Source of the DNA: a candidate division WS6 bacterium OLB20
GTDB lineage: Bacteria > Patescibacteriota > Dojkabacteria > B142 > OLB20
Assembly: GCA_001567355.1 (NCBI GenBank)
Contig: JYNZ01000003.1
Coordinates: 605,793 to 669,792, forward strand
Direction: 5' to 3'
DNA length: 64,000 bases
This document shows positions 44,194 to 55,691 of this stretch, piece after piece. The notes beneath the pieces were generated by a model. The model ran no database searches and was not told the DNA's origin. It saw only the letters and a list, made by a program, of their open reading frames with translations. A program made the position numbers and the translations under genes. Positions within the stretch are counted from its first letter, which is position 1; the number at the start of each line of letters is the position of its first letter.

Positions 44194-45168
44194 ATGACGA
44201 CTCTAAAAAGAACAGCGCGACCGGATGATTTTCTCCTGAGTGTGGTTGCACCCGTATACAACGAAGAGGGCAATATCCGAAAGTTTATCGAACGGGTCGT
44301 TGCTGCAATGGACAAGGCGAAAATCAGGTTTGAACTGATACTTGTCAATGATGGAAGCAAAGATGATTCCGTTCTCATCATTCTTCAGATGGCAAAAGAG
44401 GACAGGCGCATCAAGCTGATCAACTTCAGCCGCAACTTCGGTCACCAGATGGCAATCTCTGCCGGCTGGGACTATGCAAATGGAGACGCCGTCGTCATTC
44501 TGGACAGCGATCTGCAGGATCCGCCCGAGCTCATCCCTGATCTTGTCACAAAGTGGCAGGAGGGTTACGACATTGTTAACGCTGTTCGTAAAACCCGCCA
44601 GGATACATTCTTTAAAAAAATGACAGCAACGCTGTTTTATAAGCTCCTCAACAGAATTCTGACCAGTAAAATCCCCGAGAATGTAGGAGACTTCAGACTT
44701 ATGGATGCGAGGCCTGTGGCAGTGATGCGTAAACTCAAAGAACGCGACCGTTACATCAGAGGTCTGACAAACTGGATCGGATTTAAGCAGGCATTTGTCG
44801 AGTTTGACCGCGATAAGCGCTCTGCAGGTGTGACCAACTACACTATGGGCAAGATGATAAATCTGGCACTCAACGGAGTGTTTTCATTTTCCGACTTTCC
44901 GCGCAAGCTTGCGCACTATGCATGGATTCTGTCGCTGCTGCTAGCGGTTGGCATTGTTGTATATGCTGTTGTTCTGCACCTGACGGGTATCAACGTTCCC
45001 GGCTGGACATCGCAGGTGTTCATCGTCGTCTTCTTCAGTTCTGTTCAGCTGTTTCTGACTTCAATCGTGCTGGAATATGTCAGCAGGGTATACTGGCAGC
45101 TGCAGAACAGACCGCTCTATATCGTCTCTGAAACAATCAATCTTGACCCTGAGGTTGAAGAGGGCTAG
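44194..45168 (+). CDS. GT2 polyprenyl-phosphate sugar synthase (ArnC/DPM1/GtrB-like)
   Basis: VVAPVYNEEGNI...ILVNDGSKDDS...DSDLQDPPELI followed by two C-terminal TM helices is the DPM1/ArnC architecture. Confidence 0.8.
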   Translation: MTTLKRTARPDDFLLSVVAPVYNEEGNIRKFIERVVAAMDKAKIRFELILVNDGSKDDSVLIILQMAKEDRRIKLINFSRNFGHQMAISAGWDYANGDAVVILDSDLQDPPELIPDLVTKWQEGYDIVNAVRKTRQDTFFKKMTATLFYKLLNRILTSKIPENVGDFRLMDARPVAVMRKLKERDRYIRGLTNWIGFKQAFVEFDRDKRSAGVTNYTMGKMINLALNGVFSFSDFPRKLAHYAWILSLLLAVGIVVYAVVLHLTGINVPGWTSQVFIVVFFSSVQLFLTSIVLEYVSRVYWQLQNRPLYIVSETINLDPEVEEG

Positions 45169-45253
45169 ATCTGACAGCAGACGTTCGGGAATTATCTCTT
45201 CCTTTTCTGTATTTTCGGTGAAACTTTTCCGGTCGGAGCAGGATATTACACGT

Positions 45254-53300: not shown

Positions 53301-54220
53301 TTGACTGCCGCAAGGATGACTGCAGCGAGACGACCTGTTATGACTATAAAAGCGGAGCACGTCACTGTATCGCTGCTGAGGACAAACAGACACCGGTACT
53401 CTTTAATGATGCGCTGGCCGCAGTGTATTATGACCTCGATTTCCATTCCTACTTTTCGCGTCTTGAAGAGATCCGCGGTGTGAGGCGTGACTTTCTGGCG
53501 TTTCTGCGTGATGAGAAGTTTCTGTCGGATGACGGGGAGATTGTTTTTGACCGCTACCGAAAATCAATGCCGGCAGAGATAACGGTTGGCTCGCTGATTC
53601 CTGTCGATTACAGCAATATCTTTCCTGCCTCAACCAACTTTGGTGTAACACAGATTACAAACAGTTACTTCAGAACGCACCAGATTGAGATGGCAGTCGG
53701 TACCTCTGCAGGTAACGTGATCTCGTTTCTGATCAGAAACGGCGTGCAGCCCGAACGTCTCGCCTCTGATGCTGAATTACGCCTGACAATGCAGCGTGAC
53801 CTGATCGAACGCAACATCGTTCTGTATCCGATTGATGATGTTGATTATTATGACCGGCTGCTCGTAAATGCTGTCCAGCGGCTGGTGCTTGAGGGGGATC
53901 TTTCTGTCTCTGTCGATCTGACGGGAACGAGCACGGTTCTGTACAAAGTTTTCAGCTCCCAGCCTGTGAGCGCTCGGGATGCCGAGCTGCAGAAGCTGCT
54001 GCTGCCCGAACTTGAAGGGCTGGCAACGATGAATGATCTGATTGAGCCGTTTATTGAGGAGGGCACAGAGCTTACACCCGAACAGCGAAAGGAATTAGGC
54101 CGGAATCTTGGTATAGTGAACTGGGGAGACCGTGACAGGGATGCGGAGGAACTGCTCCGGTCGATACCTGCCCGGTCAAGCCTGTTTAAAGCTGTCTACC
54201 TTGGAATTTATGAAAACTAG
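50336..54220 (+). CDS. Giant (1294 aa) membrane-anchored protein with an N-terminal Rossmann-like (FAD_oxidored/PF12831-like) dinucleotide-binding motif and about 1100 aa of unassigned beta-rich sequence
   Basis: TM helix LVLMVTAVVGIPLAAIALSL, then QVFVYGGTLGGSSAAITLAQDDIRVVIASDTPHFGGQAV. No other motif is recognised. The alternative start is ATG 50456. Confidence 0.65.
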   Translation: MTRFLKSIQNRITDAARGVAGYAHGSRIRLSRLNRRNLVLMVTAVVGIPLAAIALSLQERVIILDTQVFVYGGTLGGSSAAITLAQDDIRVVIASDTPHFGGQAVDSGISAFDEAGRGWENYGVYAQLKRYISEKYDITEGRNFGPGNAVVGSLATMPGDVEEFFLNRFSELDPLTFFSDYKLMSVTKDEYGSYSEAELVNEKERIRLIVRFDYLVDGTQTGTLIAKTGAAYNIGFDKREETNEPSAMTEQVRDYFINGYTDREKQHGKLGNRVQSVSAMLPIYDQGYNGFYANDRAISGCWEQSEIKPYVVSGSVFVATEAGCEMTITLQPEFTDAYDIWFINHGNGAIDASLKLDGNEHSYRFISTLDSDRHRLGTFYLSNSQKVELKLRAPAEGHQVEGLILQKTNLHQQPVVLNSPINQRHGFTSTKIRSYLADIYVFSDAGLVSNGLSLNDSRLELTETGPQSYRAERVLINTERNFFDFSSQADADGTKQVLVIPVRPVNSGEIQLLYEDAVQYGSWQPGVSPDGQPNYVSVGESLSQWEITPAKTGRYLVLLDWFPFWDRTTRASIKIFDADTDEQLARSVFSQRFKPREDQIPVMTADLEAGRTYKVRFENFEAGRVLDFADLSLIPLEDSNFIYVEDTALSLSSDRYEGLYDLWLLPAAEQTASVTKDGTTYNTGISNTTAFTIAGRFFVHERSSDSVSGQQIMQMLLIPSYRANSYVKEVDLSSQNYVDIRQLIPGRYIMTTNFDRDLVFGELKAGNAPELEDKSDIPTYRADTGQITSTAAMHHDGATLQIGFTGLVGQPKGKIYLYDEIPGSYNTQQFQFGFPLLKETDTSRQIYFSQTFFNFRNVISPQNLLGRSWGLPFEKMLGTNTLGLSIAATPFNDYAPVTANTLETQELEDNAKRFSYAYYYWIRYDSLINTTTAGCDPADRLHCDPRRVGLAATIYATDDGFSNLVYYREGRRLVTVDPITEQEVTLRYLDCRKDDCSETTCYDYKSGARHCIAAEDKQTPVLFNDALAAVYYDLDFHSYFSRLEEIRGVRRDFLAFLRDEKFLSDDGEIVFDRYRKSMPAEITVGSLIPVDYSNIFPASTNFGVTQITNSYFRTHQIEMAVGTSAGNVISFLIRNGVQPERLASDAELRLTMQRDLIERNIVLYPIDDVDYYDRLLVNAVQRLVLEGDLSVSVDLTGTSTVLYKVFSSQPVSARDAELQKLLLPELEGLATMNDLIEPFIEEGTELTPEQRKELGRNLGIVNWGDRDRDAEELLRSIPARSSLFKAVYLGIYEN

Positions 54221-55691
54221 ACTCAAACATTACACACGGCTTGTTTACCCGTTCGCGGTACTGATCCTTGCTGTACTTGTTTATCTGCGCAGTTCGCATG
54301 CATTTCTTATCTCTCCTGACAGTTACGATATCCTGCTGACTGCAAAAGCGCTGGTGACAACAGGCACCATTGATGTGATTCATCTCGACGGTTACTGGAC
54401 GGCTCTTGCTCCGTTTTCACGCTACGGTGCGGCAATCGTGATAGCGGCAGTGCACACGGTGACCGGTGTATCACTGATCACATCGGCAAAGGCATTGTCT
54501 ATGGGATTGTTTCTGGCAACATGGTCAGCACTGCTTGTCTGGGCTCTAAAAAAATATCCCAAAAAACATTCCGAAGTACTGCTTGTCTGGTCATTATTTG
54601 TGCTTTCATTTGCACAGCTGTTCTGGGTTCAGATGATTGTGGCCGACATGCTGGCTGCTGCTGTCTTCACTGCCGGACTGCTGCTGACCGATCTGCAGAT
54701 AAACAGACGCGGTCGCTATCTTGGGCTTGTCATTGGTGCGCTTGTGTTTATCCGCTGGGAGATCGCAATTCTGCTGCTGCTGATTGCGTCTGTCCGGCAC
54801 CGGTATCGCCCCTCAGAAACACTGCTGCTGCTGATGCCCGGTGTGCTCACGTATCTCCTGTTTCTTGCTGCAACCACCGACTCGACACGATATGTCGATT
54901 ACCATACCGCCCGTCTTCAGGAGGGGATCCTGCTAAGTCCGCTCCTGCTGATCCTGGGGCTGGTGCTGCTGGTGTTTGTGTTTATCCGCTTCAGGAGCAA
55001 TCTGTTGCATCTGCTGCTTGGCGCGGCACTGCTTGTGCCAGGGGTACTGTTTTTTGAACAGCACGACATTCTGGGGACACTGGGAAATGCGTTGTTCCTG
55101 TTTGGTCACGAACTGCCGCTGTTTGTGCTGGTACTGGTCTCGCTGTTTGTCGCCCGAAAAGAAAACTTTGAGACAGTCAAACTCTATATCGGGCTGGCCG
55201 GACTGATGGTATTTACCTACCACTTCTATTTTCAGCATTACACGATTATTCTGCCTCTGGCTTTTATTGCCGTTGTTATGTCACTGCAGGCGGCACATCT
55301 GCATAAGCGCCAGATCGCGTTTCTGCCCGTGCTGCTGGTGATCTCGCTGCTTATGCTGGTGATTGAGCTGCCGCGGCAGGCACCTGACTCGCCGGATATC
55401 TACTCGAGCGCATTTGGATACTACAGCAGCCGGCAGTTGCAGCCCTGCCTGACTTCGGGGACTATCGAGACAAGTTTTGTTCCAGAGCTTCTGTTCTGGC
55501 GCTTCCAGGACCGCTCACGGATTGCTTCTATCGGCGACATTGCCACAGATGCGACGATTGTCGACCGCGAGTATGCTCTCCGGAATGAGCTGTCCAGCAA
55601 TCAGTATGCAAAAGTTGAGATTGACAACTCACTGCTTGTCCGCGGACAGGGCAGGTACAATCCATGGCTGTATATTCGATGCGGTCAGTGA
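54210..55691 (+). CDS. Polytopic membrane protein, GT-C-like (putative glycosyl/arabinosyl transferase)
   Basis: The internal ATG at 54210 overlaps the upstream stop by 11 nt. About 13 TM helices, with an early loop ISPDSYDILLTAKALVTTG. Confidence 0.55.
   Translation: MKTRLKHYTRLVYPFAVLILAVLVYLRSSHAFLISPDSYDILLTAKALVTTGTIDVIHLDGYWTALAPFSRYGAAIVIAAVHTVTGVSLITSAKALSMGLFLATWSALLVWALKKYPKKHSEVLLVWSLFVLSFAQLFWVQMIVADMLAAAVFTAGLLLTDLQINRRGRYLGLVIGALVFIRWEIAILLLLIASVRHRYRPSETLLLLMPGVLTYLLFLAATTDSTRYVDYHTARLQEGILLSPLLLILGLVLLVFVFIRFRSNLLHLLLGAALLVPGVLFFEQHDILGTLGNALFLFGHELPLFVLVLVSLFVARKENFETVKLYIGLAGLMVFTYHFYFQHYTIILPLAFIAVVMSLQAAHLHKRQIAFLPVLLVISLLMLVIELPRQAPDSPDIYSSAFGYYSSRQLQPCLTSGTIETSFVPELLFWRFQDRSRIASIGDIATDATIVDREYALRNELSSNQYAKVEIDNSLLVRGQGRYNPWLYIRCGQ

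Follow-up and report, generated by a model that had tools for sequence, protein, structure and literature searches.

A family 2 glycosyltransferase (GT2) acting as a synthase, a flippase and a glycosyltransferase of the GT-C fold class together form an established route of extracytoplasmic glycosylation (PMC11127046). Pyruvyl transferases modify lipid-linked precursors with phosphoenolpyruvate (PEP), at the cytoplasmic face of the membrane (PMC6801904, PMC6030368), as described for CsaB, which likewise works on a lipid-linked precursor with PEP (PMC6801904). CsaB and S-layer homology (SLH) domains co-occur in many Terrabacteria (PMC6801904; bioRxiv 10.1101/2021.05.31.446380). The chemistry of pyruvylated wall glycans in actinobacteria is known and their genetics are unassigned (PMC6801904). 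In this study, we analysed a 64,000-nucleotide stretch (hereafter the window) of the genome of the candidate division WS6 bacterium OLB20 (contig JYNZ01000003.1), in which six genes at positions 44194–55691 encode a GT2, a family 4 glycosyltransferase (GT4), a polysaccharide pyruvyl transferase (PyrT), a large membrane protein (X), a giant protein of 1294 residues and a membrane protein of 493 residues. On balance, we read them as one operon through which a glycan of the cell envelope receives a pyruvylated sugar unit by way of a polyprenyl-phosphate carrier. This reading is built on gene content, folds, topology and conserved linkage; from these we infer which substrates and acceptor are used, in what order the steps run and what the giant does. 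A preliminary description of the window had proposed a lipid-carrier-linked envelope glycan locus at this place; domains, folds and synteny support that general idea, to which we add two frameshifts, an identification of the large proteins and a pairing of PyrT with a GT-C protein that extends across phyla.

All six genes lie on the plus strand in the order GT2, GT4, PyrT, X, giant and 493-residue protein, and four of the junctions are as tight as first described: GT4 and PyrT overlap by 4 nucleotides (46463–46466), PyrT and X are separated by 0 nucleotides (47560/47561), X and the giant overlap by 41 nucleotides (50336–50376) and the giant and the last gene by 11 nucleotides (54210–54220). 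The overlaps of the giant with both of its neighbours recur in two related loci (35 and 20 nucleotides in L003, 41 and 17 nucleotides in L005), which suggests that the giant is translationally coupled to both flanking GT-C genes. A scan for promoters and terminators gave nothing exceeding shuffled expectation. The full order of six genes recurs in L003/L004 at 35–55% identity; L005/L006 and the P0001 contig keep this order from GT4 onward, GT4 having no GT2 upstream of it in L005 and the P0001 contig, and L094 keeps it from X onward. Gene order is thus conserved in related loci, one of the points raised in the preliminary description.

Two of the six genes, GT4 and X, had been taken as intact open reading frames (ORFs), and each is in fact broken by a single 1-nucleotide frameshift. 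The gene for X (47561–50376) measures 2816 nucleotides, which is not a multiple of three; its reading frame stops at 49459 and continues in a second frame that is open from 49411. Comparison with an intact ortholog (P0004, 937 residues, 72% identity), which reads NSFLFLRAALYED across the junction, places a 1-nucleotide deletion within 49411–49459, most likely at approximately 49421–49425. GT4 (45254–46466) is found in two ORF pieces, 45254–46201 and 46188–46466, both of which match the same orthologs in L003 and L005. Its frameshift is one additional A in the A7 run at 46093–46099; with one A removed, an uninterrupted protein of 403 residues results, which reads YYGELKKRARDLQNVVWHGFATEEELPAIFSAADLGVFPY at the junction and is colinear with the L003 and L005 orthologs.

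With two of six genes out of frame, the operon might be a decaying pseudogene cluster in which both frameshifts are real and the system is non-functional in OLB20. The genome, however, comes from a study of the Olburgen anammox reactor that used the IonTorrent PGM, and its authors corrected 'persistent frameshifts, common in IonTorrent data' and acknowledged residual ones (PMC4821891). One of the two shifts sits in the A7 homopolymer, and both halves of each gene are fully conserved with no additional stops. Three further genes in the window are likewise split by frameshifts, namely the housekeeping genes for UvrD (4880–6996) and RarA (56277–57480) and that for an ABC-transporter ATPase (41290–42236, minus strand), the Walker A piece of which lies in a separate frame; these splits indicate residual IonTorrent indels across the contig. 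Since the data are of this kind and three other genes are affected, the shifts in X and GT4 are very probably sequencing indels, and we hold the decay of the operon to be highly improbable.

Domain matches agree with the labels first given to the three leading genes. The GT2 (44194–45168, 324 residues) matches PF00535 (E = 1e-33, residues 16–173) and possesses transmembrane (TM) segments at 238–270 and 273–296, the combination of a GT-A domain and a C-terminal two-TM hairpin by which polyprenyl-phosphate glycosyltransferases are recognized. It is 55% identical to the L003 ortholog in the same position. The best NCBIfam match is PgfS (E = 5e-77, profile 3–305 of 308, 259 bits against a cutoff of 500), and ArnC is also matched (E = 4e-50, profile 8–313 of 316, 170.7 bits against 529). 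Because it aligns end to end with PgfS and ArnC and ends in two TM helices, the protein is typed from its sequence as a polyprenyl-phosphate sugar synthase (PgfS/ArnC/GtrB-like), although it falls below every equivalog cutoff. GT4, with its Glyco_transf_4 and Glycos_transf_1 matches, is by domain content an ordinary GT-B enzyme.

PyrT (46463–47560, 365 residues) covers the whole of PF04230 (PS_pyruv_trans; E = 2.8e-26, 93.5 bits against a gathering score of 25.3, profile positions 1–280 of 280). The CsaB type assigned to it earlier stands in so far as CsaB (TIGR03609) is the closest NCBIfam family, with WcaK weaker, but not as a class assignment, as its 148.7 bits lie below the equivalog cutoff of 213.1. 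CsaB is also the best match of the PyrT copies in the actinobacterial and Chloroflexi cassettes described below (174.3 and 138.6 bits, respectively). A classical CsaB/SLH system would agree with these best matches, with the position of the flippase Wzx beside PyrT in relatives, which recalls the flippase–pyruvyl transferase pair, and with the joint presence of SLH and CsaB in many Terrabacteria. Every PyrT copy scored nevertheless falls below the equivalog cutoff, no SLH domain occurs in the approximately 50 window ORFs scanned, and the conserved partner of PyrT is a GT-C protein instead of an SLH protein. A survey of 1,093 genomes moreover reports the loss of SLH/CsaB in Chloroflexi and the candidate phyla radiation (CPR) (bioRxiv 10.1101/2021.05.31.446380). 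We therefore consider a classical system very unlikely here, and a link of the locus to SLH proteins unlikely.

X, of approximately 938 residues, has approximately 11–13 TM helices and an extracytoplasmic C-terminal region of approximately 400 residues that ends in a CBM6/35-like beta-sandwich. The 11 Lys/Arg residues in its N-terminal 68 residues mark an N-in topology. Two acidic residues in the first outer loop directly after TM1, Asp110 and Glu111 (DEL-P), are invariant in 16 of 16 sequences; further invariant motifs are YAK-TH-YTL, NPA-HY and RFPHRFQ and, after the last TM helix, H-FIDKF...YYGL-GD-NK. Even at E ≤ 10, searches with six family members brought no sequence match in Pfam, NCBIfam or the PDB, and X lies outside the described GT-C sequence families (PMT_2, YfhO, STT3, ArnT, DUF3367 and others). 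Its homologs comprise close CPR relatives at 45–72% identity and Actinomycetota proteins of approximately 1050 residues at approximately 25%; such proteins are called only 'hypothetical' in the sources. An AlphaFold model of the ortholog P0004, built from a 16-sequence alignment (pLDDT 65.9, pTM 0.61), has the transmembrane fold of GT-C enzymes. On this model, X is predicted to be a GT-C transferase with a carbohydrate-binding-like tail and not a flippase or transporter. The GT2 of the polyprenyl-phosphate sugar synthase type that is encoded together with X bears on its predicted use of a polyprenyl-linked donor, in which the linkage would be through phosphate or pyrophosphate.

The same features bear on whether the acceptor is a protein. 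X could be an oligosaccharyltransferase-like or PMT-like enzyme that places the (pyruvylated) glycan on proteins of the surface, for example S-layer or pilus subunits, comparable to the Pgf system of Streptococcus mutans or to PglB/AglB. PgfS is indeed the best NCBIfam match of the GT2, and X has, behind its last TM helix, the conserved aromatic/acidic motif YYGL-GD-NK, at the place where oligosaccharyltransferases carry WWDYG. The beta-sandwich that ends X is, however, typical of polysaccharide binding, AftD, AftA, ArnT and ALG enzymes score almost equally with oligosaccharyltransferases as structural matches, and no gene for an acceptor protein is conserved in the cassette. Protein glycosylation thus appears unlikely, and a polysaccharide acceptor is preferred in what follows.

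The pairing of PyrT with X extends far beyond WS6. A scan of GTDB species genomes for relatives of X gave 114 loci, the best 80 of which (L012–L091) were used for the counts. PyrT lies within 400 nucleotides of X in 72 of these 80, in Actinomycetota, Chloroflexota and CPR; seven of the other eight are at contig ends or obscured by overlapping ORF calls, and in L086 PyrT is approximately 2.5 kb away on the opposite strand. Wzx and a short GT2 are each present in 61 of the 80 loci and GT4 in 57. Taxa with X loci include Microbacterium, Mycolicibacterium, Agreia, Acidimicrobiia, Anaerolineae, Caldilineae, Herpetosiphon and Peribacteraceae. Over nearly its full length, the short GT2 aligns with the polyprenyl/dolichyl-phosphate sugar synthases PpgS, AglJ and DPhHxTase. 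Judged by gene content, a short GT2, GT4, Wzx, PyrT and an X-family GT-C form a conserved cassette in three phyla, and the coupling of PyrT to X across phyla was missed in the preliminary description. Given this conserved pairing, the best explanation is that the pyruvylated lipid-linked product serves X as its substrate outside the membrane. The PyrT–X core would be extended in WS6 by a second GT-C and an anchored PF12831 protein.

Variations on this arrangement occur in Peribacteraceae-type loci (L001, L002, L020, L022 and L095), where X and the giant are neighbours. GT4::PyrT fusions of approximately 835 residues stand beside X in four of them (L002 3133–5640, L020 7546–10002, L022 6999–9527 and L095 11402–13849) and tie the GT4 and PyrT steps together. 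Directly beside X in loci of this type is a single-pass protein of approximately 450–490 residues with no Pfam match (L001 4084–5418, minus strand; L020 12756–14222; L022 12685–14070; L095 16592–18046), in the position that the giant occupies in WS6. In an Anaerolinea metagenome-assembled genome, an N-terminally anchored DUF1080/3-keto-disaccharide-hydrolase protein follows X (L007 12907–15429, above the Pfam cutoff), and in L001 a relative of it with 38% identity lies ahead of the giant (8511–9836); this DUF1080-type gene probably also fills the gap of approximately 3.7 kb that follows X in many Anaerolineae loci.

The giant (50336–54220, plus strand) is the protein first described as Rossmann-like, a label borne out by its match to PF12831 (FAD_oxidored; E = 2e-31, 110.1 bits against a gathering score of 27), which falls in two stretches covering both halves of the profile. 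In the homolog P0002 the second stretch, profile 231–416, lies at residues 845–1090, and from these two stretches the PF12831 fold of the giant is judged to be split by an insertion of approximately 560 residues. A single TM segment at 36–59 is preceded by eight Lys/Arg and one Asp/Glu, and Cys pairs are conserved; from the charge distribution and these cysteines the bulk of the protein is probably extracytoplasmic. In six of six homologs the dinucleotide motif reads G-x-[T/S]-L-G-G instead of GxGxxG, the central Gly being replaced by Thr or Ser, and since this motif is atypical the binding of flavin adenine dinucleotide (FAD) is uncertain. Only the N-terminal beta-alpha-beta unit matches the PDB. 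The family is rare, with three matches among 5.8 billion proteins, four loci in a metagenome scan and presence in two of the 80 X loci. A kinship through PF12831 with the pyruvated-mannose-specific xanthan lyase of Paenibacillus alginolyticus was considered and dropped, as that enzyme is listed in polysaccharide lyase family 8 (PL8; PMC10881899).

Exported PF12831 and DUF1080 proteins are assumed to act on host or environmental polysaccharides, and the giant might accordingly stand outside glycan assembly as a surface enzyme that degrades or scavenges such glycans and is merely co-located with the operon. A sub-threshold match resembling Golvesin_C/Xly-CBD within the insertion, seen in two of six homologs, points this way, as does the similar position held by DUF1080-type anchored proteins in Chloroflexi and Peribacteraceae loci, DUF1080 proteins having been proposed as glycosidases (PMC5673643). 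On the other side stand the start/stop overlaps with both flanking GT-C genes, kept in three lineages, and the adjacency of the giant to X in nine of 11 distinct giant loci. The two remaining loci, L092 and L093, show no X homolog within the 5–10 kb examined, and a different protein of approximately 545 residues with 10–11 TM helices comes after the giant in both (L092 3747–5372, L093 8543–10201). A merely co-located giant is, in our judgement, distinctly unlikely, and we retain a role in glycan assembly. A sulfatase-family membrane protein of 606–632 residues that resembles lipoteichoic acid synthase precedes the giant in L002 (6688–8508) and L093 (2913–4808), the two copies being 40% identical.

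The last gene (54210–55691, plus strand; TR69_WS6001001046) encodes a polytopic membrane protein with a P-D-x-Y motif (Pro36-Asp37-x-Tyr39) in the first outer loop just after TM1, invariant in four of four members, and a YHFYFQH motif. Among 1.84 billion representative proteins, four belong to its family, and all three with readable context lie directly downstream of a giant. No match was found in Pfam (also at E ≤ 10), in NCBIfam or in a PDB profile search of the family, and hhalign detected no relation of the family to X or to the PMT_2 protein of the window. A weak model built from only four sequences (pLDDT 55.9, pTM 0.60) ranks ArnT (E = 0.012), PglB and STT3A highest in Foldseek at template-modelling scores of 0.33–0.38, the agreement being in rank only. 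The protein resembles X in that its N-terminus lies inside, a conserved acidic motif sits in its first outer loop and its C-terminal domain is outside. This model, weak as it is, supports the earlier label of GT-C-like, and the protein is probably a GT-C-fold glycosyltransferase. By sequence comparison, both membrane proteins belong to families without a database entry; neither shows the homology to transporters or proteases that the preliminary description had named as the alternative, X being modelled with the GT-C fold and the 493-residue protein probably having it. The flippase roles it had offered to the large proteins do not hold, as X is a transferase by fold and the giant is single-pass anchored and otherwise soluble.

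The 'complete' assembly line first proposed is also to be revised. A hidden Markov model made from relatives detected no Wzx in any ORF of the window at E < 0.01, while Wzx is present in L003; no GtrA match (PF04138) was found among the ORFs flanking the operon, whereas L005 has a GtrA_DPMS_TM gene approximately 5 kb upstream; and the scanned window ORFs gave no match to the polymerase and priming families Wzy_C, Bac_transf and Glycos_transf_4. With no Wzx, GtrA or priming phosphoglycosyl transferase in or next to it, the locus cannot be called complete.

A pathway can be outlined from these assignments. At the cytoplasmic face, the GtrB/ArnC/PgfS-type GT2 would load a sugar onto polyprenyl phosphate, and GT4 would probably add a further sugar from a nucleotide sugar. 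The CsaB-like PyrT would then place a pyruvate ketal on the lipid-linked saccharide with PEP. PEP is present only in the cytoplasm, and pyruvylation must therefore precede flipping. The intermediate would next be flipped by a flippase encoded elsewhere than in this locus, a function that Wzx may serve in relatives. Outside, X would move the pyruvylated unit to a polysaccharide acceptor, which its CBM-like C-terminal domain could hold, and the 493-residue GT-C may perform a second transfer dependent on a lipid phosphate. At the outer face, the giant would most likely bind the glycan or the lipid-linked donor, or modify one of them chemically by oxidation.

Several observations weigh against this pathway. 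This window yielded neither a flippase nor a priming enzyme; the giant has a nucleotide-binding motif unlike GxGxxG and, as an exported FAD enzyme, would require a supply of cofactor outside the cell; the model of the 493-residue protein is of low confidence (pLDDT 55.9), with no Foldseek match at E ≤ 0.001; and, if both frameshifts were genuine, the operon would be inactive in this strain. More speculatively, and with little confidence, X may represent a new GT-C family dedicated to moving pyruvylated saccharides off the lipid carrier, Actinomycetota, Chloroflexota and CPR would then share SLH-independent, anionic, pyruvate-bearing wall glycans, and the giant of CPR would stand for a new type of flavoenzyme working outside the cytoplasm, or for a derivative of one without cofactor, and would remodel a lipid-linked sugar or nascent glycan between the GT-C steps in a DprE1-like manner. 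PyrT and a GT-C that is a database orphan, present together in the genomes of at least 72 species, are a concrete and testable candidate for the making of such glycans, and testable in particular in Microbacterium and Mycolicibacterium, which are culturable carriers of the cassette. The envelope is central to the epibiotic life of CPR bacteria, and the locus offers three uncharacterised surface-facing proteins as targets.

Further genes lie around the operon. Divergent from it is a gene (43328–44077, minus strand) for an acidic protein of 249 residues with one N-terminal TM anchor and a tail of 34 Asp/Glu against nine Lys/Arg; it has no match in Pfam or NCBIfam, and homologs occupy the matching place in L003 (37% identity) and in L005. 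It is a conserved neighbour of the operon, and its membership in the system is uncertain. A protein encoded at 38969–40126 (plus strand), also without Pfam or NCBIfam match, is conserved near the operon in L003 and L005 (54% identity); in OLB20 an ABC-2 transporter intervenes. This transporter (40175–42000) was rejected as an exporter for the system, as it is not kept beside the operon in relatives. Farther away, 9718–17522 (minus strand) encodes dnaA and dnaN, followed by a PMT_2-family GT-C (13041–14726), two FemAB-family genes and a DegT aminotransferase; the PMT_2 protein is the third GT-C within 64 kb of a genome of approximately 1.4 Mb. Measured by length, the preliminary estimate of about one third for the share of glycan machinery in the window is roughly correct, but the dnaN-linked block on which it drew includes the two FemAB genes, and the 751-residue protein at 18763–21018 (plus strand), taken for an O-antigen ligase with TPR repeats, has only TPR matches at E ≤ 1e-4, leaving the ligase domain unconfirmed. 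The window also encodes an 824-residue sulfatase with a Laminin_G_3 domain (32027–34501, plus strand) and a 1370-residue protein with TSP3 and CarboxypepD_reg repeats (698–4810, plus strand), large surface or secreted proteins that are unusual for a reduced CPR genome.

Compared with CsaB-dependent synthesis of secondary cell-wall polymers (SCWPs), as in Bacillus anthracis (csaAB) and Paenibacillus alvei (TagO/TagA/CsaB), the locus shares a PS_pyruv_trans enzyme closest to CsaB, a Wzx-type flippase beside PyrT in relatives and, presumably, pyruvylation at the lipid-linked stage. It differs in a PyrT below the equivalog cutoff, in the lack of TagO/TagA in the locus and of SLH domains in the scanned window ORFs, in host phyla that are reported to be without SLH/CsaB, and in the partner of PyrT, a large GT-C that does not figure in the described SCWP pathways. 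With the three-component systems of GT2, flippase and GT-C (Gtr O-antigen modification, CsbB/YfhO, ArnC/ArnT and Pgf), it has in common a hairpin GT2 encoded together with GT-C-fold transferases. Here, however, a GtrA-like flippase is lacking, there are two GT-Cs instead of one, GT4 and PyrT lie between the synthase and the GT-Cs, the 1294-residue FAD-fold protein lies between the GT-Cs, and the GT-Cs match no Pfam or NCBIfam family. The giant resembles the PF12831 family in that matches above the gathering score cover the N-terminal as well as the C-terminal half of the profile, and departs from it in the insertion of approximately 560 residues, the N-terminal membrane anchor, the Thr/Ser in place of the central Gly and the lack of any solved structure matching past the first beta-alpha-beta unit. 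The mycobacterial arabinan pathway (decaprenyl-phosphate-ribose, DprE1/DprE2 and Emb/Aft) offers what seems a likeness in pathway logic only, DprE1 having a fold of the VAO type, not PF12831, and there being no sequence relationship; in both, a lipid-phosphate sugar, a protein of flavoenzyme fold and several GT-Cs acting outside would come together, and X has AftD and AftA among its best structural matches.

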